Notes under the pieces: generated by a model | Told to the model about the DNA's origin: nothing | The model's input: only the letters and a program-made list of their open reading frames with translations | The model's database searches: none | Source: Bacilli bacterium | GTDB lineage: Bacteria; Bacillota_I; Bacilli_A; RFN20; CAG-826 | NCBI GenBank assembly: GCA_024408235.1 | Contig: JAKSVF010000001.1 | Span: forward strand, 29,417-93,416 | Direction of reading: 5' to 3' | DNA length: 64,000 bases | In this document: positions 28,741-37,560 of the stretch, piece by piece | Layout of the letters: each line of letters opens with the position of its first letter | How positions within the stretch are numbered: position 1 is the stretch's first letter | Program-made: the position numbers and the translations under genes

Positions 28741-29328
28741 ATGAAACGTGGATTGTTGATTATTATGTCAGGACCTAGCGGTGTCGGGAAAGGCACAGTT
28801 AGACAGAAAGTTATGGAGGATGAGACACTCAACCTCGCATATTCCATTTCCATGACTACACGCGGTCCACGCGCTGGTGAAGAAAACGGAAGAGAGTATT
28901 TTTTCGTCACTAAAGAAGAATTTGAGAAGAACATCAAAGAGGGCAACCTCCTTGAATATAACTTCTTTGTATCCAATTATTACGGTACACCAAAGAGTTA
29001 TGTCGATCAGTTAAGGAATGAAGGAAAGAACGTTCTTTTGGAAATCGATGTCAACGGCGCTAAAACTGTCATGGCTAAGTGCAAAGAGATTGGCGACGAC
29101 GTCGTTTCATTCTTCATCCTTCCTCCATCAATGCAGGCTTTAGAAAATCGTATCAGGGGCAGAAGAAGTGAGCCTGAAGACGTCATTCAAGAAAGACTTT
29201 CCAAGGCAGCAGCCGAAATTGACCAATCATCTAATTACAAATATCCGGTTGTTAATGACAACCTTGAAGAAACGGCTAAACTTATCCGCGATATCATTGT
29301 AAAAGAAAGTAACAAAAATTCTGATTAG
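28741..29328 (+). CDS. gmk: Guanylate kinase
   Basis: P-loop GPSGVGKGTV plus the signature TTRGPRAGEENGREYFFV. Confidence 0.95.
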   Translation: MKRGLLIIMSGPSGVGKGTVRQKVMEDETLNLAYSISMTTRGPRAGEENGREYFFVTKEEFEKNIKEGNLLEYNFFVSNYYGTPKSYVDQLRNEGKNVLLEIDVNGAKTVMAKCKEIGDDVVSFFILPPSMQALENRIRGRRSEPEDVIQERLSKAAAEIDQSSNYKYPVVNDNLEETAKLIRDIIVKESNKNSD

Positions 29329-29361: not shown

Positions 29362-31563
29362 ATGCAATTAGTGAGCGTCTTAACACAGTATGGAGCTCGT
29401 GCATTAGCGCGAACTTTTTCTTATGTGTACTTTGGCAAGAAAAAAGTTGCTGAGCGTTTTAGAGTAAGAATCAACTTTAACGGTAAAGAAATCATGGGCT
29501 TTGTAACAGAAGTTCAGGTTGTCGATAAAACCCAAAATGAGCTTGAACAGGAGTGCGGATACGCAATAAAAGAGATTTACGAGTCAGACATCATTGATGA
29601 GGAACCTCTTATTAATGATGAATTGATGGAACTCGCCAATCAGGTTGCCGATTATTACATGGCGCCTCTTATCTCTGTTCTTCAGGCAATGCTCCCAAAG
29701 ACATTATCGCCAAAGATGTCATCATTGAAGGGTCCTAAAATCGCATATGAGAAGTGGGCCAAGGTTATAGATCAAAATGAAGACGGCCTTACACCAAAAC
29801 AAATAGAAATGTTGAGGCTCATCGCATCGAATGGTGATGTTCTCAAGAAAGAGTGCGGATCACCTGCGATTCTTAAAGCGTTAGAAGATAAGAAGAAAGT
29901 GCTTATTTTTAATAAGGAGAAGATGAGATTCGTTCTTCCTCCTGAAGAAAGAGAAAATCCGCATGAGATGTCTCTTGAGCAAAGAAGCGCATATGACACA
30001 ATTCTTTCTGCGCAGAAAGATGTTGTACTACTTCAGGGTGTTACTGGTTCTGGTAAAACCGAGGTATATCTTAGAGTATCGGAGAAATATCTCGAGGATG
30101 GAAAGACTGTTTTAATGCTTGTTCCCGAGATTAATCTCACCCCTCAGATGGTCGAGTATTTTTCACGCAGATTCGGGCCAAAAGTCGCGATTCTTCATAG
30201 CGAGTTGACCCCAGGGGAAAGATATGACGAATATCGTAGAATCGCGCAAGGCAAGGCTCAGATTGTTGTGGGGGCTAGAAGTGCGGTTTTCGCTCCGTTA
30301 AACAACATCGGATTAATCATCTTAGACGAAGAACACGTCGAGTCATATAAACAGGATAATTCTCCATATTACCACGCGAGAGAAGTCGCCATTATGAGAG
30401 GCAAGATCTCTAATGCAAAGGTGTTGCTTGGTTCTGCTACGCCTACTCTTGAGACAAAAGCTCGCGCTATGAGAGGCGTCTATGGTTACGCTGAGATGAA
30501 AAATAGAGTCAATAAGCGTCCTCTTCCTAAGACTCAGATCATAGATTTATGCAATAGATTTAACTACGATAAAAAATCCGAAAAGATCACAAAGCCTGTT
30601 TTACAGGCTATCCAAGAAAGAATCGGAAGAAAAGAACAGTCATTACTTCTCATCAACAGACGTGGATACTGGACCGCCATAAATTGTCCTCAATGCGGAT
30701 ACATTTTCGCTTGCCCTCAATGCGGAGGCAATCTTACATACCATGTTCACGACCACATGCTCAAATGCCATCACTGCGGTGAAGTCCAGATTCATCCTGA
30801 CAAATGTCCTGGCTGTGGTTATACCAAATTAAGAAGAGTTGGATATGGGACGGAACGAATTGTTGAGGAACTTAAAGAGATTATTCCAGGTTGTAGAGTG
30901 GCAAGAATGGATTCTGATGTCAGCCAAGTTTCCAAAAAAATGGAAGAGACTTTGAAGGCATTTAGAAACGGTGAATACGATATCCTTGTCGGAACTCAAA
31001 TGATTGCAAAAGGACATGACTTCCCTAACGTCACGCTATCAAGTGTTGTTATGGCAGATATCGGATTATCTCTGCCTACATATCGCGCGGCGGAGAGAAC
31101 CTTCCAGCTGATCGCGCAGGCTGTTGGAAGAAGTGGTCGCTCATCAAAAGAAGGTGTCGCTTTCATACAGACTTATAACCCTAAACATTATGCCATAACT
31201 CTCGGTGCTACCCAGGATTTTGAAAGATTTTTCATTCGCGAAATGAATGAGAGAAAGCTTACCCAATACCCTCCATATGTCTATTTAATCCTACTTGAAT
31301 TCGCTTCTGCTAATGAAGAAAAATGCGTAAATGCAGCTTATGACATTAAGACAGCTCTAGAGGATAAAAACCTCGACACATTGACGGTTGTTGGACCGAT
31401 TACCCCGTTCTATTCGATGATAGCAGGAAAACATAAGAGAGTCGTTCTTCTAAAAATGAAGAAACGCGAACCTGTTGTCGAGGCCTTAAAAGACCTTTTA
31501 TCATCGCCTATTTCTTCAGGCTCCGTCGACATTTCAATCAACGTTGACCCATTAGATTATTAA
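29362..31563 (+). CDS. priA: Primosomal protein N' (replication restart helicase)
   Basis: N-terminal 3'-DNA-binding domain, Walker A GVTGSGKTEVYL, DEEH, and a Cys4 zinc insert (CPQCG...CPQCG...CHHCG...CPGCG). Confidence 0.95.
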   Translation: MQLVSVLTQYGARALARTFSYVYFGKKKVAERFRVRINFNGKEIMGFVTEVQVVDKTQNELEQECGYAIKEIYESDIIDEEPLINDELMELANQVADYYMAPLISVLQAMLPKTLSPKMSSLKGPKIAYEKWAKVIDQNEDGLTPKQIEMLRLIASNGDVLKKECGSPAILKALEDKKKVLIFNKEKMRFVLPPEERENPHEMSLEQRSAYDTILSAQKDVVLLQGVTGSGKTEVYLRVSEKYLEDGKTVLMLVPEINLTPQMVEYFSRRFGPKVAILHSELTPGERYDEYRRIAQGKAQIVVGARSAVFAPLNNIGLIILDEEHVESYKQDNSPYYHAREVAIMRGKISNAKVLLGSATPTLETKARAMRGVYGYAEMKNRVNKRPLPKTQIIDLCNRFNYDKKSEKITKPVLQAIQERIGRKEQSLLLINRRGYWTAINCPQCGYIFACPQCGGNLTYHVHDHMLKCHHCGEVQIHPDKCPGCGYTKLRRVGYGTERIVEELKEIIPGCRVARMDSDVSQVSKKMEETLKAFRNGEYDILVGTQMIAKGHDFPNVTLSSVVMADIGLSLPTYRAAERTFQLIAQAVGRSGRSSKEGVAFIQTYNPKHYAITLGATQDFERFFIREMNERKLTQYPPYVYLILLEFASANEEKCVNAAYDIKTALEDKNLDTLTVVGPITPFYSMIAGKHKRVVLLKMKKREPVVEALKDLLSSPISSGSVDISINVDPLDY

Positions 31564-31656: not shown

Positions 31657-32166
31657 ATGATCACCATTTCTTTATTAGGCTTAGACCAATACGTGGCTGG
31701 CCACTACAGCAAGACGCACACAGAAAATCTCGCTCAGCTTTTCGAAGTTGATGAAGACGCAGTATCTTTCTATGCGCCAAATTCCATCATTATTCACAAT
31801 GGAGTAGAACAGACTTCATGGAACACCGAAGTCAGAGTTCACCTTCCTACAAAGTTCGCACCACTTGAAGAGAAGGTTGCCGATTACCTTATCCAGACCC
31901 TTAAGGAAATCACAATTAACATGAACATAACATTCGAGTATTACGAAGAGGCTAGCCACTACGAATACCAGAATGATGAATACCCTAAGTTCATCAGAGC
32001 CGACAACATCGTCGACATGGATGACCCATACGCAGAAGAAAACGAAGAGGAATACGATGGACCAACTCCAGAGCCTTACCTCGGAAATATATTCGCCGGC
32101 AAAGAGGAAGAGTTAGACGCTAAATATAGCGCTGATGAAGAATACCTCACTGAAGAAGATAAATAA
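31657..32166 (+). CDS. Hypothetical highly acidic protein
   Basis: ORF whose C-terminus is rich in E, D and Y (EENEEEYDGPTPEPY...DEEYLTEEDK). No known motif. Confidence 0.45.
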   Translation: MITISLLGLDQYVAGHYSKTHTENLAQLFEVDEDAVSFYAPNSIIIHNGVEQTSWNTEVRVHLPTKFAPLEEKVADYLIQTLKEITINMNITFEYYEEASHYEYQNDEYPKFIRADNIVDMDDPYAEENEEEYDGPTPEPYLGNIFAGKEEELDAKYSADEEYLTEEDK

Positions 32167-32179
32167 TGGGGAGAATAGT

Positions 32180-33499
32180 ATGCAGACATTAGATATTTGT
32201 GAAGCAGTATTAACAGACGTTCTTGCCAATGACGTCTCATTCGCTGACGCTCTCAAAAAGGTCTTTAAATCAAGCGTTGACCTCCGCCCTCAGAGAAATA
32301 CAGTCGCATCTTTGGTTGGATGTGAACTTCGTCACCATCTTCTCTTCTCTTATCTCTTGAAGCCAATTGAAGTTTTGACTGATGAAGAAAAGAGACTTGT
32401 CTCTTTATGTCTTGCTGAGTATTACTTCTATCAGAGACTCAACAAAGATGAAGTCGATAGCCACCTCCTTGCAAAACTTGGAGAAGAAAAAATTGAACTC
32501 CTCAAACCGTTATTCGATAAATCGGGTAAGCCTGAGGAATACATCCCAGCTGAGATATCAAAATCAAGCAACAAGTACTTATCATTAAGATACAACACCC
32601 CAGAATGGGTTCTTAAGATCATTGAGCATTATGGTTTCGGAACAACGTACAAAGTATTAAGAAAAAATGCTCAGCAGAGAATCTCGACCGTCCGTGTTAG
32701 AGAAGGCTTTGATAAGAATACAATAGATCCTAACGCTTTCAAAGGCTCACCTGTGCCAGGTATTTATTACTATCAGGGCAAGGAATCCCTAAGAAAACTA
32801 GAAGCCGCCAAAGAAGGCAAGATCTTCAATGAAAGACTAGCGACTAAATTTATCTTAGATAAATACAGAGTCAGCGATCCTTCAGAACTTTTCATCTTTG
32901 ATGGAAATGGCGATGGTTCAATCTTCAAAGAAGCAATCGAAACCTACGGCACAAAGATCGGAATGAACTTTGGAGTCTATTCCGAAGACAAGTATGCAGA
33001 TGTCGCTAGAATGATTAGAACCGAAGGCTTAAAGAACATTAACTACTTTGCAGCTGATCCAACATTCCTTGATGCAGCTATCTCTCGCCCACAGGATTTG
33101 GTAATCGTATCGCCTAAATCCACAAACTTTGATTTGATTAGAGAACAGCCAGATTATCTTCTTCACTTCAAGAAGAGCGAAATGGATGAACTCTTTAGAA
33201 AAGAGAAAGAAGCGCTTGAAGGCGTTTCTAAGGTTGTCGCAGATGATGGACTCCTCATCTACATGGTTTACACAATCAGCAAGAAAGAAGGCCACCAGAC
33301 GATCTCCGAATTCTTGCTCAACCACACAGAATTCAAGTTCGTTAAAGAAGAACAGCTCTTCCCTCAGGATGAACTCGACACAGCAATGTACTACGCTGTT
33401 CTCAAAAAAGAAGAGAATGCTATCATTCTTGATAACCCAGCATCATTGGCTAACCCATTAGAGGGAACGGCCTTCGCTATGTCAGCAAAGGAAAGATAG
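32180..33499 (+). CDS. RsmB/Sun-family (NusB-like N-domain plus MTase fold) protein with degenerate SAM-binding and catalytic motifs
   Basis: It occupies the rsmB slot between priA and rlmN. It aligns to RsmB motifs but shows IFDGNGDGS instead of DxCAAPGGKT, VSPKSTNFD instead of DAPCSGTG, and YTISKKEG instead of TCS. A GGGGAG RBS precedes the ATG at 32180. Confidence 0.55.
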   Translation: MQTLDICEAVLTDVLANDVSFADALKKVFKSSVDLRPQRNTVASLVGCELRHHLLFSYLLKPIEVLTDEEKRLVSLCLAEYYFYQRLNKDEVDSHLLAKLGEEKIELLKPLFDKSGKPEEYIPAEISKSSNKYLSLRYNTPEWVLKIIEHYGFGTTYKVLRKNAQQRISTVRVREGFDKNTIDPNAFKGSPVPGIYYYQGKESLRKLEAAKEGKIFNERLATKFILDKYRVSDPSELFIFDGNGDGSIFKEAIETYGTKIGMNFGVYSEDKYADVARMIRTEGLKNINYFAADPTFLDAAISRPQDLVIVSPKSTNFDLIREQPDYLLHFKKSEMDELFRKEKEALEGVSKVVADDGLLIYMVYTISKKEGHQTISEFLLNHTEFKFVKEEQLFPQDELDTAMYYAVLKKEENAIILDNPASLANPLEGTAFAMSAKER

Positions 33500-33503
33500 A
33501 ATC

Positions 33504-34553
33504 ATGAAGAAGAATCTCTTTGGTTTTTCGCTTCCTGCTTTAGAAGAAGAAATGACAAGCCGTGGAGAAACTCGTTATAGAGCAAGACAGCTTTATGAGT
33601 GGATTTACGTTAAAAAAGTCTATGACTTCTCGTTAATGACAGATATATCCAAGAATTTCAGAAAAGTTCTTGAGGAAGAATATTGCTTGGACTTGCCAAC
33701 AATTTTCACACGCCAAAATGCCGCTGACGGAACCGTCAAGTTATTACTTGAGATGGAAGATCATTCAAAGGTTGAGACGGTCCTTATGAGATATGATTAC
33801 GGCAATGTCATCTGCGTATCGTCTCAAGTCGGATGCTCAATGGCTTGTGCTTTTTGCGCCTCCGGAATTCTAGCCAAGACAAGAAACCTTACTGCATCGG
33901 AAATGGTAGGGGAAGTCATTCTTATGAACCAGTTACTTGCTGAAGAGGGTGAGAATATCTCCCATATCGTTGTAATGGGAACCGGTGAGCCATTTGACAA
34001 TTACGATAACGTAATGTCATTTGTGAGAGTCATGAATGAGCAAAGGGGCCTTGCGATTGGTGCAAGACACATAACCGTCTCCACATGCGGCCTTGTCGAT
34101 GGCATCAGGAAATACGCTAACGAGGGAATTCAAATCAATCTTGCGATTTCTCTCCATGCCCCAAATGATGAAATCAGAAATCAGATAATGCCAATTTCAA
34201 GAAAATACAACATGGATGAGCTTCTCGATGCAGTTAAATACTATGTTGAAACAGCAGGGCGCAGAGTCACTTTTGAATATATCATGATCAAAGGTCTTAA
34301 CGACTCAATTGAGAATGCTGATGAACTTGCTAGAAGACTCAGGGGAATTTTCTGTTACGTTAACCTCATTCCGCTGAATCCAGTTAAAGAAAAACCGTTT
34401 GAAAGAAGCGAAAATGTCCACGCTTTCAATAGGCGTTTAAACGATAAAGGTGTCAACTGTACTGTAAGAAAAGAGTTCGGTACAGATATTGATGCCGCTT
34501 GTGGACAACTCAGAGTTAAATATGAGAGGAAGGGGAAGAACTATGGCAACTAA
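33504..34553 (+). CDS. rlmN: 23S rRNA m2A2503 / tRNA methyltransferase, radical SAM
   Basis: Radical-SAM Cys triad in GCSMACAFCASG, together with the conserved MGTGEP and CGQL C-terminal motifs. Confidence 0.93.
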   Translation: MKKNLFGFSLPALEEEMTSRGETRYRARQLYEWIYVKKVYDFSLMTDISKNFRKVLEEEYCLDLPTIFTRQNAADGTVKLLLEMEDHSKVETVLMRYDYGNVICVSSQVGCSMACAFCASGILAKTRNLTASEMVGEVILMNQLLAEEGENISHIVVMGTGEPFDNYDNVMSFVRVMNEQRGLAIGARHITVSTCGLVDGIRKYANEGIQINLAISLHAPNDEIRNQIMPISRKYNMDELLDAVKYYVETAGRRVTFEYIMIKGLNDSIENADELARRLRGIFCYVNLIPLNPVKEKPFERSENVHAFNRRLNDKGVNCTVRKEFGTDIDAACGQLRVKYERKGKNYGN

Positions 34554-35295
34554 ATACCGTGGAAGCTATGGATATAAAGTCCATCCAGGCAAAGTTCGCA
34601 CAAACAACGAAGACCAGGCGTCCGTTTTGATGAATCCAGATGGTGAAATCCTTCTTGTCGTTTGCGATGGAATGGGCGGATCACAGAAAGGTGATGTTGC
34701 CTCAAGAATGGCGATCGACATCATAACCAAATCATTCCCCTCAAAGAAAAAACATGTTTTTGCGAGCGCTGATAAGGCTTGGCTTACAAAAATTGCTAAG
34801 AAGGCAAATTCCGCTATCTACGAAACAGCCGATAAGAATCCTAGGTATAAAGGTATGGGAACTACGCTTGTTGCGGCCCTTATCTCTAATAAGAGGATGA
34901 TTGTTGTCTCCATTGGCGATAGCCGTTGCTATTGTTTAAAAGACGGTGAAATTAAACAACTGACAGAGGATCAGACCTATGTTCAGATGTTAATCAACAC
35001 CGGAAAGATCACTCCAGAAGAAGCCCTTACTCATCCAAAGAGACACGTTCTTTTGAACGCGATGGGCATCTATCCGTCATTATCAATCGACATCAAACAA
35101 TATAAATACCGTGGGGAAACAATTTTATTATGCACTGATGGTTTATATAACCAGGTTCCAGCGGATGAGATAAAGGCAATTCTCTCAAGCGATGAGAGAG
35201 TTGACCAGAAACCAATATCACTAATCATCGCCGCTAACGCACACGGCGGAAGCGACAACATTGGAGTTGCTGTTTGGGAGACTGAAGCACAATGA
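34543..35295 (+). CDS. PP2C-family Ser/Thr protein phosphatase
   Basis: Motifs RTNNEDQ, VCDGMGG, GDSR and GGSDNI. An ATG at 34543 with a GAGAGGAAGGGGAAG RBS overlaps the rlmN stop. The ORF-track start at 34489 is a TTG. Confidence 0.9.
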   Translation: MATKYRGSYGYKVHPGKVRTNNEDQASVLMNPDGEILLVVCDGMGGSQKGDVASRMAIDIITKSFPSKKKHVFASADKAWLTKIAKKANSAIYETADKNPRYKGMGTTLVAALISNKRMIVVSIGDSRCYCLKDGEIKQLTEDQTYVQMLINTGKITPEEALTHPKRHVLLNAMGIYPSLSIDIKQYKYRGETILLCTDGLYNQVPADEIKAILSSDERVDQKPISLIIAANAHGGSDNIGVAVWETEAQ

Positions 35296-36173
35296 TAGAG
35301 ATCGGAAGTAAAATAGACGGTCGCTATCGTGTAACCGGTCGTATCGCTCACGGCGGTATGGCAGATGTCTACGAGGGCTTTGATTCACTATCCCATCGCT
35401 ATGTCGCAATCAAGGTCATGCGAGTCGATTGCATGGCTGACCCAGAAAATATCAAGCGTTTTAGAAAAGAGTGCGAGGCATGCGCTTGTTTTAATTCGCC
35501 TCATATCGTCCGCATCTATGGTCAGGGCACTGTTGATGGTGGACGCCCTTACATGATTAACGAGTATGTTGAGGGCAGAACTTTAAGAGATAAATTGAAC
35601 ATGGTTGAAAACCATTGTTTAAGCGCTAGAGAAGCATGTGAATTCATGGTGCAGCTTTGCCTTGGAATGCAATACGTCCATGATCATGGAGTTGTTCATC
35701 GTGACATCAAGCCGGATAACATGTTCTACGCCGCAGACGGCTCTGTCAAAATCACCGACTTCGGAATTTCCAGTCATGTCGGCGAAAAAGCAAATAGAGA
35801 AGCCATTCCTGGAACGCTATTCTATACGGCTCCAGAAATCATCACAGGAGGAGACCCTCTCATCCAATCTGACATTTTTTCGATGGGTGTAGTTTTCTAT
35901 GAGATGCTAACGGGCAAACTCCCTTTCAGCGGGGAAGATAAGAAAGCTGTCGTAAGCGCAATCGTTAAAAAGAGCGCTCCAATTCCATCAGATGAGTATT
36001 CTTCGATTCCTAAAGCGGTTGATAGAATCGTCATTAAATGCCTTCGCAAGAGACATCAAGAGAGATATCAGAACTGCAATCAACTTAGAAGAGCGATCGA
36101 ATCTGTCCTTAAGGACAAGAATGCTTTTAAGGAAAAGAAATCACTCTTATCAAAGATATTTGGATTCAAATAA
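35292..36173 (+). CDS. Hanks-type Ser/Thr protein kinase, catalytic domain only
   Basis: Motifs HGGMADVYEG, AIK, HRDIKPDN, DFGIS and APE. It is 293 aa with no TM segment and no PASTA repeats. Its start overlaps the PP2C stop. Confidence 0.9.
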   Translation: MIEIGSKIDGRYRVTGRIAHGGMADVYEGFDSLSHRYVAIKVMRVDCMADPENIKRFRKECEACACFNSPHIVRIYGQGTVDGGRPYMINEYVEGRTLRDKLNMVENHCLSAREACEFMVQLCLGMQYVHDHGVVHRDIKPDNMFYAADGSVKITDFGISSHVGEKANREAIPGTLFYTAPEIITGGDPLIQSDIFSMGVVFYEMLTGKLPFSGEDKKAVVSAIVKKSAPIPSDEYSSIPKAVDRIVIKCLRKRHQERYQNCNQLRRAIESVLKDKNAFKEKKSLLSKIFGFK

Positions 36174-36176
36174 ACA

Positions 36177-36842
36177 ATGGGAAATTATAAGAACAAAACA
36201 ACATATATAGCCCCATCTATTCTCGCTGCAGATCCGAATAGAATCGAAGACGAAATAGCGTTGATAAAGACTTCGAAGGCTGCATTCGTCCATATAGACA
36301 TAATGGATGGAAAATTCGTTAGAGCGACGACTTTTAATGATGATTTCGTAAAAAGGGTAATCGACGTTTCTGATCGTCTAGTCAAGGATGTCCATATAAT
36401 GGTGGAAGAGCCGTGGATTATCGGTCCTAAGTTTGCAAAGATGGGTGCATCTATTGTCACGTTCCACTATGAGGCGTGCGGAGATGACCAGGTCGTTTTT
36501 AAGACTATCAAAGCCATAAGAGACGCCGGCTCTAAAGTCGGAATATCAATCAAGCCTAATACGCCAGTAGAAGTATTGAATCCTTTTCTTGACCAAATCG
36601 ACCTTGTTCTTATTATGACGGTAGAACCTGGCGCTGGTGGCCAATCGTTCATGGCAGATATGATGGTGAAAGTTAAGAAACTCTCATCAATTGATGGCCG
36701 TAAGTTTTTGATTGAGTGCGATGGTGGAATAAAAGACACCACCGTCTCAATCGTTAAAGAAGCTGGAGCCGACGTTTTGGTCGCTGGTTCATATTTATTC
36801 GGTCATAAAGATTTTAAAGAAAGAGTGGAGACCCTTTTATAA
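36177..36842 (+). CDS. rpe: Ribulose-phosphate 3-epimerase
   Basis: Motifs IAPSILAAD, HIDIMDG, and GG...D at the C-terminus. Confidence 0.93.
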   Translation: MGNYKNKTTYIAPSILAADPNRIEDEIALIKTSKAAFVHIDIMDGKFVRATTFNDDFVKRVIDVSDRLVKDVHIMVEEPWIIGPKFAKMGASIVTFHYEACGDDQVVFKTIKAIRDAGSKVGISIKPNTPVEVLNPFLDQIDLVLIMTVEPGAGGQSFMADMMVKVKKLSSIDGRKFLIECDGGIKDTTVSIVKEAGADVLVAGSYLFGHKDFKERVETLL

Positions 36843-37527: not shown

Positions 37528-37560
37528 AAGAAGCGGGGTTCCCGCTTCTATTTTTCTTTG
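37528..37560. terminator. Bidirectional rho-independent terminator
   Basis: agaagcggg-gtt-cccgcttct followed by atttttcttt. It lies between the membrane-protein gene (+) and rpmB (-). Confidence 0.75.

Follow-up and report, generated by a model that had tools for sequence, protein, structure and literature searches.

In a 64,000-nucleotide stretch of the genome of a Bacilli bacterium (GTDB order RFN20, family CAG-826; GenBank assembly GCA_024408235.1, contig JAKSVF010000001.1, positions 29,417 to 93,416 of the forward strand; hereafter the window), we analyzed an intact open reading frame (ORF) of 439 amino acids that lies in the genomic position of rsmB. RsmB is the methyltransferase for cytosine C967 of 16S ribosomal RNA (rRNA). 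As judged from alignments and a predicted structure, the encoded protein keeps the fold of RsmB, while the loop that binds S-adenosylmethionine (SAM), the aspartate of motif II, the Asp-Pro-Cys of motif IV, and the cysteine of motif VI are all gone. We hold, with moderate confidence, that the gene is a direct descendant (positional ortholog) of rsmB which turned into a pseudoenzyme unable to methylate and which persists because it fulfils a non-catalytic role, probably one in the biogenesis of the 30S subunit. An earlier, sequence-only reading of the window had proposed a fold-retaining positional ortholog of rsmB that lacks the SAM loop and both catalytic cysteines; our analysis supports this proposal and extends it to a large family of proteins. 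The conversion of an rRNA methyltransferase into a pseudoenzyme is of a known kind; what is new is a family of dead RsmB proteins kept by selection.

Predicted fold and catalytic motifs of the RsmB-like protein

The sequence homology to RsmB is weak but significant. In NCBIfam, the protein reached 66.7 bits with the RsmB model PRK14902 (cutoff 319) and 27.7 bits with TIGR00563 (cutoff 269), and therefore falls outside the equivalog membership of either model. With Methyltr_RsmB-F (PF01189) of Pfam, the profile that the sequence-only reading had proposed as a check, it scored 23.3 bits compared to a gathering score of 27, and positions 47-165 of the 199 profile positions alone were matched. The same profile matched 103 of 111 family members at E ≤ 0.01, which argues that the homology is real, although the query itself stays below the threshold. 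Ten distant members of the family obtained 55-170 bits in the RsmB equivalog test, all of them under cutoff. A comparison of the family alignment (A1) with RsmB of Escherichia coli by hhalign gave a probability of 94.6% (E 6.8e-8) over 348 columns.

The AlphaFold2 (AF2) model, calculated from 111 family sequences, had a predicted local distance difference test score (pLDDT) of 90.7 and a predicted template modelling score (pTM) of 0.85. Its best matches in the PDB according to Foldseek were the RsmB/Fmu structures 2yxl, 1sqf, and 1sqg; the alignment with 1sqf (E. coli RsmB) had a TM score of 0.76 (E 1.1e-19) and covered 437 of the 439 residues at 15% identity. Nop2, RsmF, NSUN4, and NSUN6 ranked next, and the matches included pre-60S and mitoribosome assembly intermediates. 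According to the prediction, the full three-domain architecture of RsmB/Fmu is kept, and with it the helical domain at the N-terminus, which in RsmB resembles NusB (Table 1). The NusB-like N-terminal domain claimed earlier is thus borne out as a likeness of predicted fold; it was not recovered at the profile level, where Pfam NusB (PF01029) gave no match at E ≤ 1. The same domain harbours the conserved segment RPxRxxVAGLVGCELRHHLLF. For the central domain, the profile RsmF-B_ferredox (PF22458) matched 29 of 111 family members.

The register of the catalytic motifs was taken from four alignments, namely phmmer against 2yxl, hhalign, MAFFT on 133 representatives, and a MAFFT alignment of 256 sequences that was bridged by a less degenerate subfamily (P0260) and a canonical RsmB (P0314). 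The latter anchor came from a word-based homolog search with P0260, the least degenerate member, which returned 14 proteins. The canonical protein reads DLCAAPGGKS, DVPCSGLGVIRRKPE (motif IV DVPCS), and YSTCTLSRAEN, and the P0260 subfamily reads ...TPPSTYLGQIRRRPG... (motif IV TPPST) and ...YSVQTINLKEG. In place of the SAM-binding loop we confirmed the IFDGNGDGS that had been noted earlier (32894-32920). This position reads xGNxDSS in the close family and is not conserved in the wide family. In motif II, the ribose-binding aspartate of RsmB (D277 in E. coli) corresponds to Val266, at which the strand of the model ends. Motifs I to III are not conserved even between family members, and the SAM pocket is therefore not under constraint.

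Both catalytic cysteines are absent, as had been claimed: the protein has no more than three cysteines (residues 7, 48, and 77), and the stretch of residues 78-439 is free of them. The nucleophile of motif VI falls on Tyr364 in all four alignments. T-C-S thereby corresponds to V363-Y364-T365, one residue away from the TIS to which it had initially been assigned. For motif IV, D-A-P-C-S most likely corresponds to S-P-K-S-T. The ungapped MAFFT alignments place the cysteine on Ser314, whereas phmmer and hhalign place it on Lys313 and return the register of VSPKST on DAPCSG that the sequence-only reading had given, which is one residue off in MAFFT. The loss of the cysteine holds in either register, because no cysteine follows residue 77.

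The same picture emerged for the family. Among 254 aligned members, the nucleophile column of motif VI contains no cysteine, with Tyr, Pro, Asn, Asp, or Phe instead, and Thr365 is present in 250. The cysteine column of motif IV is occupied by Ser in 209 members, by Asn in 30, and by Cys in 8. All near-full-length proteins among the top 150 members are without the SAM loop and without the nucleophile. Shifted catalytic cysteines were ruled out, as the query has none after residue 77 and cysteine occurs within ±2 columns only in scattered members. The intact motifs of a different methyltransferase family, the second finding by which the sequence-only reading could have been overturned, were not encountered either.

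A single family member, P0194, has cysteines near both catalytic sites (±2 columns). It belongs to a subgroup (P0147, P0151, P0163, and P0194, and also locus L084, 8001-9275) that reads P-D-C-S at motif IV and keeps this cysteine. Motif VI of P0194 reads N-T-C-S, with the cysteine one residue past the nucleophile column, and its SAM loop is degenerate. The P-D-C-S subgroup, or P0194, may represent relics of the transition from enzyme to pseudoenzyme.

In RNA 5-methylcytosine (m5C) methyltransferases, the cysteine of motif VI attacks C6 and the cysteine of motif IV resolves the adduct. Since both cysteines and the SAM pocket are gone, m5C formation is not expected. That the protein still acts as an RNA methyltransferase, with unconventional residues taking over SAM binding and catalysis, appears very unlikely. 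The loop conserved at motif I in the close clade (xGNxDSS; DGNGDG in the query) and the conservative nature of a Cys to Ser change in motif IV would be compatible with such an enzyme. However, the nucleophile of motif VI is known to be needed for RNA m5C formation and is found in 0 of 254 members, motifs I to III vary across the wide family, the aspartate of motif II is a valine, and the scores with all curated RsmB and RsmF models remain far under cutoff. With regard to the substrate, an Rfam scan of the window gave no hits at all, and the helix 31 pattern of 16S rRNA was absent from 86 sequences (85 loci and the window).

Genomic position, distribution, and selection

The gene is full-length and preceded by a putative ribosome-binding site (GGGGAG, 32168-32173), in agreement with the earlier claim, and its frame runs intact from ATG 32180 to the stop codon ending at 33499. 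With an alternative in-frame ATG at 32135 (32135..32179), the protein would be 15 residues longer and its frame would overlap the stop codon of the preceding gene. The N-termini of all homologs read MQ(E/T)LD and match the start at 32180; together with the position of the Shine-Dalgarno-like sequence, this identifies 32180 as the real start. Gene callers that select the longest ORF may mis-start the RsmB-like gene at 32135.

The RsmB-like gene is part of a tightly packed array on one strand that comprises gmk, priA, a small ORF, the RsmB-like gene, rlmN, prpC, prkC, rpe, and a membrane ORF. The order in Bacillus subtilis is priA-def-fmt-rsmB-rlmN-prpC-prkC-cpgA-rpe. By this comparison the gene is exactly in the position of rsmB, and the placement made by the sequence-only reading holds, between priA plus one small ORF on one side and rlmN-prpC-prkC-rpe on the other. 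The order gmk-priA-orf-rsmB(-like)-rlmN-prpC-prkC-rpe was kept in 80 of 80 fetched loci, each from a different species or assembly, and the three most divergent family members examined occupy the same operon slot (3/3). Each assembly yielded a single RsmB-like locus, which occupied this slot in all of the related genomes fetched. The neighbouring rlmN is intact, which indicates that the organism still employs SAM-dependent rRNA modification.

A word-indexed search returned 224 relatives, of which the best 120 share 45-93% identity with the query and all derive from uncultured 'Bacilli bacterium' metagenome-assembled genomes (MAGs). When a single genome of each GTDB species was scanned, at least 135 loci were obtained, again all from uncultured Bacilli MAGs. 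One of 135 related MAGs is named Candidatus Enteromonas, a genus of the order RFN20 and the family CAG-826 (PMC8035907), and this family is predicted to be without peptidoglycan (PMC10868615). A profile search of 1.84 billion cluster representatives (50%-identity clusters) found 187 clusters at E ≤ 1e-30 and 946 at E ≤ 1e-10, and the family is conserved to below 30% identity over hundreds of clusters. These numbers support a large and undescribed family of the RsmB lineage.

In IMG, P0007-P0041 and P0276 are named '16S rRNA C967 or C1407 C5-methylase (RsmB/RsmF family)', which implies an activity that the sequences cannot support; PGAP calls the proteins hypothetical. Several 'cleanbin' assemblies (L016, L020, L031-L038, L041, L063, L073, and L081) carry the Bacilli-type operon under unrelated titles (Escherichia coli, Bacteroides uniformis, Roseburia hominis, Faecalibacterium prausnitzii, Alistipes shahii, and Prevotella) and are probably mislabelled bins.

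Selection on the RsmB-like gene is strongly purifying. Compared to the nearest relative (L002, 93% amino acid identity), the nonsynonymous divergence (dN) was 0.044 and the synonymous divergence (dS) ~1.7, with a ratio of ~0.03 that is approximate because dS is saturated; for priA and prpC of the same operon the ratio was 0.021 and 0.034, respectively. In the alignment of the close family, 27 columns are invariant and 83 nearly so, at a mean column identity of 59%. Of the three domains, the Rossmann-like domain is the most conserved (0.71), and the most conserved stretches are the remnants of motif IV (QDLVIAAPxSSNFDLIRExPDY, 0.83) and motif VI (GTLIYMIYTISKKEGH, 0.86). Most of the residues that persist in the wide family are shared with canonical RsmB and lie beyond the SAM site. 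They comprise P141 and W143 (H-P-x-W in RsmB, here NTPEW), which are kept in 98% and 86% of the wide family, respectively, P324-D325 (R-x-x-P-D), G357 and Y361 (G-G-x-L-V-Y), T365 (the Ser/Thr after the lost cysteine), E370 (the E of E-E-N), F378, and, towards the C-terminus, Q392 and P395 (Q..P) as well as A406 (Y.A).

This pattern is typical of a pseudoenzyme in which the scaffold and at least some of the macromolecular interface persist, and not of a decaying gene. The features by which pseudoenzymes are recognized, i.e., homology, loss of catalytic and cofactor residues, and purifying selection, are all found in the sequences. A functionless relic, or pseudogene in the making, might have been suspected from the loss of all catalytic motifs and from the fact that E. 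coli can do without rsmB and many Mollicutes no longer have it (PMC3439901, PMC4014445). The data already contradict such a relic, to which we assign next to no probability: the frame is intact in 80 of 80 loci, the dN/dS ratio of ~0.03 is comparable to those of priA and prpC, and the 27 invariant and 83 nearly invariant columns, the conservation to below 30% identity, and the confident predicted fold all argue against it.

Possible functions of the protein

The conservation across the lineage without catalytic residues suggests that the job of the protein probably does not depend on methylation. According to our preferred reading, neither productive SAM binding nor a covalent Cys-C6 intermediate would occur, and m5C967 would not be formed. 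The protein itself would be needed, as an RNA-binding factor that docks on the head of the 16S rRNA in the region of helix 31 during late 30S maturation. Docking would involve the NusB-like domain at the N-terminus and the former catalytic cleft, which is remodelled but highly conserved, and the protein might serve as a chaperone, a placeholder, or a checkpoint, as is the case for other rRNA methyltransferases that act independently of catalysis. The inactivation would have accompanied a wider remodelling of the operon, in which def-fmt were replaced by a DUF1904-like gene and rsgA left the operon of the close clade. The most likely role, in our view, is one in late 30S maturation or at helix 31, because the conserved residues are the RsmB-type ones outside the SAM site, because the gene belongs to a translation-related operon in which it is co-transcribed with rlmN and, in distant loci, rsgA, and because the superfamily offers a precedent for methylation-independent ribosome biogenesis (NOP2/NSUN1, PMC9561284). 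In broader terms, the retained RNA-binding or assembly role that the sequence-only reading had suggested is plausible, being in line with the pattern of conservation and with precedents from the superfamily.

A comparison with known systems places the protein closest to RsmB itself (Fmu/Sun; E. coli 1SQF/1SQG, P. horikoshii PH0851 2YXL). The two have in common the three-domain predicted fold, the slot upstream of rlmN, and the non-catalytic signatures H-P-x-W, R-x-x-P-D, G-G-x-L-V-Y, the E of E-E-N, and the C-terminal Q..P/Y.A. In contrast to RsmB, the query has no SAM loop, no motif II aspartate, no D-A-P-C, and no T-C nucleophile, and the identity to E. coli RsmB in the structural alignment amounts to 15%. 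A dead RsmB is, to our knowledge, not described from any free-living bacterial lineage, and full-text literature searches returned no described inactive RsmB. Yeast mitochondrial Mtf1/mtTFB, which derives from KsgA/Dim1, and inactive assembly factors with a methyltransferase fold in the trypanosome mitoribosome resemble the protein in that the fold of an rRNA methyltransferase was kept after the loss of catalysis for a structural or assembly role; they differ in belonging to another methyltransferase family and to an organellar setting. Non-catalytic functions in ribosome biogenesis are also fulfilled by yeast Nop2 and by mitochondrial NSUN4-MTERF4. Human NOP2/NSUN1 acts in ribosome biogenesis through the formation of non-catalytic complexes, so that the presence of the protein and not methyl transfer is needed, and like the query it is a member of the NOL1/NOP2/Sun superfamily (PMC9561284). 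Proteins of this type, however, keep their catalytic motifs and methylate, whereas those motifs are removed in the query, whose substrate would be the bacterial 30S subunit. The Mollicutes (Grosjean et al. 2014, PMC4014445) are related Bacilli with reduced genomes in which m5C967 and formylation are dispensable, and def-fmt are missing from the operon studied here; rsmB was deleted there, whereas the RFN20 lineage kept the protein under purifying selection without its chemistry.

Some observations weigh against a 30S biogenesis role. The protein is acidic, with an isoelectric point (pI) of 5.55 compared to 7.17 for E. coli RsmB, and the aspartate of D-A-P-C is lost as well (Ser311). In the RsmB family, this aspartate contacts the target cytosine, and its loss would mean that the former base pocket is not kept as such. 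That the remodelled cleft is so strongly conserved would be equally compatible with a new ligand or activity or with the DUF1904-like protein as a partner. Moreover, many Mollicutes deleted rsmB outright (PMC4014445), and a non-catalytic role is therefore not universal.

Another explanation would be that the gene is a non-catalytic paralog beside an intact RsmB encoded elsewhere, and that, comparable to DNMT3L or METTL14, it serves as a subunit for regulation or targeting. The scope of our searches for rsmB, def, and fmt, which covered the 64-kb window and ~21 kb (±10 kb) per related genome, leaves room for a second gene, but we regard its existence as improbable. In 1.42 Mb of related loci, tblastn and a motif scan with the E. 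coli locus as positive control detected no canonical rsmB, no def, no fmt, and no canonical motif I or IV. The dead copy holds the ancestral rsmB slot in every locus, and the 80 loci returned represent 80 different assemblies. Genomes in the order are small: one related locus lies on a 1.06-Mb record titled chromosome (OX437086.1, a candidate complete genome), and the described genome of Ca. Enteromonas has 1.2 Mb (PMC8035907). The related Mollicutes, furthermore, drop rsmB without a replacement (PMC4014445). The KEGG Orthology (KO) tables in the supplement of PMC10868615 contained no occurrences of rsmB, fmt, or def in RFN20.

rRNA methyltransferases are nearly universal, although most of the modifications they introduce can be dispensed with under laboratory conditions. 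It has long been asked whether the methyl group or the protein is the target of selection. The lineage represents a natural separation of function, in which the chemistry of RsmB was removed and the protein has long been under strong constraint, and it provides a handle on a methylation-independent role of RsmB. Reconstructions of the metabolism or the 'modificome' of these common gut and rumen bacteria would wrongly predict m5C967, because IMG labels the proteins as active C967/C1407 methylases.

The def-fmt position and further neighbouring genes

The claim that def and fmt are missing from the operon was substantiated: tblastn and the motif scan, with the E. coli locus as positive control, found neither gene between priA and the RsmB-like gene nor in the 64-kb window. 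Their former position is taken by the DUF1904-like gene, whose true start is at 31657, where homologs begin with MITIS. It is located directly 5' of the RsmB-like gene in 76 of 76 close loci having upstream sequence and was also found upstream in 3 of 3 distant loci (hidden Markov model (HMM) E 1e-44 to 1e-62), with one divergent helix-turn-helix (HTH) gene in between in L082. The protein scored 15.5 bits with Pfam DUF1904 (threshold 24.1), and no Pfam family was above threshold. Its AF2 model (pLDDT 84.3) matched 4m1a, a DUF1904 structure, in Foldseek (TMt 0.83, root-mean-square deviation (rmsd) 2.0). The predicted DUF1904/MIF-tautomerase fold comprises ~100 amino acids and, unlike in active tautomerases, no proline follows Met1 (M-I-T-I-S). 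A degenerate peptide deformylase, which the same slot and a similar length might suggest, was ruled out, as the predicted fold is DUF1904/MIF-tautomerase and not Def. The tail of some homologs (L083 5136-5690, L084 7312-7902) ends in Cys/His-rich runs, e.g., CNCGHHHHHHHHH, which suggests metal binding.

The presence of this gene is relevant for a further explanation, namely that the RsmB-like protein was neofunctionalized and that its cleft binds a new ligand or performs a new reaction, possibly together with the adjacent DUF1904-like protein, instead of acting in 30S assembly. A new function would be in line with the acidic nature of the protein, with the occurrence of the DUF1904-like gene upstream in 76/76 close and 3/3 distant loci, and with the remnants of motifs IV and VI (P312, S314, S/T315, N316, F317, D318, T365, K369, and E370), where conservation within the protein is highest. 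Nevertheless, we consider this rather unlikely. The entire operon is syntenic, and adjacency alone therefore says little about a partnership; the DUF1904-like protein is without the N-terminal proline of active tautomerases, we recognized no new motif akin to the catalytic sites of known enzymes, and the residues shared with RsmB are kept.

RsgA is a GTPase of late 30S assembly. Its gene (rsgA, cpgA) lies between prkC and rpe in distant loci (L082 7442-8332, L083 9679-10536, L084 11951-12805). It is missing from the corresponding slot (36173..36177) and the rest of the 64-kb window as well as from each of the 80 close loci, and prkC directly abuts rpe in the close clade.

The modifications m2G966 and m5C967 tune the binding of initiator transfer RNA (tRNA) (PMC3439901, PMC3643588), and Mollicutes lose FMT and DEF together and often RsmB too (PMC4014445). 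On these grounds, the inactivation of RsmB and the loss of def-fmt from the operon may be linked, which is speculation. We give a small chance to a wider scenario, in which RFN20 and its relatives, a group of uncultured Bacilli from gut and rumen at the level of an order, rebuilt their machinery for initiation and 30S maturation: RsmB would have become a methylation-dead factor of 30S biogenesis or of the peptidyl site (P-site) with a DUF1904-fold partner specific to the lineage, and def/fmt at the same time and RsgA later would have left the operon and possibly the genome. If this scenario is true, the gene would be a natural separation-of-function allele, and selection would maintain the RsmB protein rather than m5C967. 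The replacement of def-fmt by the DUF1904-like gene points to a possibly formylation-free initiation outside endosymbionts, which is a rarity: only 31 of 5,042 reference genomes are without a deformylase (PMC12690207).

Table 1. Positions in the window of the RsmB-like gene, its domains and motif remnants, and neighbouring features
Feature	Position	Strand	Basis
RsmB-like gene, putative pseudo-methyltransferase	32180..33499	+	439 amino acids plus stop; sub-threshold RsmB profiles, hhalign, AF2, Foldseek
N-terminal all-helical domain, residues 1-125, predicted equivalent of the NusB-like domain of RsmB	32180..32554	+	six helices in AF2 model; whole-length structural alignment
Central N1/ferredoxin-like domain, residues 126-232	32555..32875	+	invariant SLRYNTPEW block
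Methyltransferase-like Rossmann domain, residues 233-412, without functional motifs	32876..33415	+	beta-alpha-beta order kept in model; mean column identity 0.71
Motif I (SAM loop) remnant IFDGNGDGS, D-L-C-A-A-P-G-G-K in RsmB	32894..32920	+	MAFFT and hhalign alignments
Motif II remnant GMNFGVYSED	32960..32989	+	RsmB ribose-binding Asp (E. coli D277) to Val266
Motif IV remnant S311-P312-K313-S314-T315, D-A-P-C-S in RsmB (E. coli Cys325)	33110..33124	+	ungapped bridged alignment
Motif VI remnant V363-Y364-T365, T-C-S in RsmB (nucleophile E. coli Cys375)	33266..33274	+	alignments agree
Shine-Dalgarno-like GGGGAG	32168..32173	+	read in sequence, 6 nt 5' of ATG 32180
gmk	28741-29328	+	operon neighbour
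priA, upstream operon anchor	29362..31563	+	Pfam PriA domains, synteny
DUF1904/tautomerase-fold gene (predicted), 169 amino acids, acidic disordered tail	31657..32166	+	former def-fmt position
rlmN, radical-SAM rRNA/tRNA methyltransferase, intact	33504..34553	+	4 nt downstream of RsmB-like gene; Pfam RlmN_N 61 bits, Radical_SAM 64 bits; synteny 80/80 loci
prkC	35292..36173	+	293 amino acids
9-bp perfect GC-rich hairpin AGAAGCGGG-GTT-CCCGCTTCT	37529..37549	T-runs flank both strands	right after last operon gene

PrkC of the window consists of a kinase domain without a transmembrane or PASTA region, and the same applies to its counterparts in distant loci (292-295 amino acids). This architecture fits the predicted peptidoglycan-deficient lifestyle of the RFN20 family CAG-826 (PMC10868615). 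In a promoter scan, the number of sites was not above that in shuffled sequence, and the hairpin at the end of the operon alone stood out; it is likely a bidirectional intrinsic terminator.

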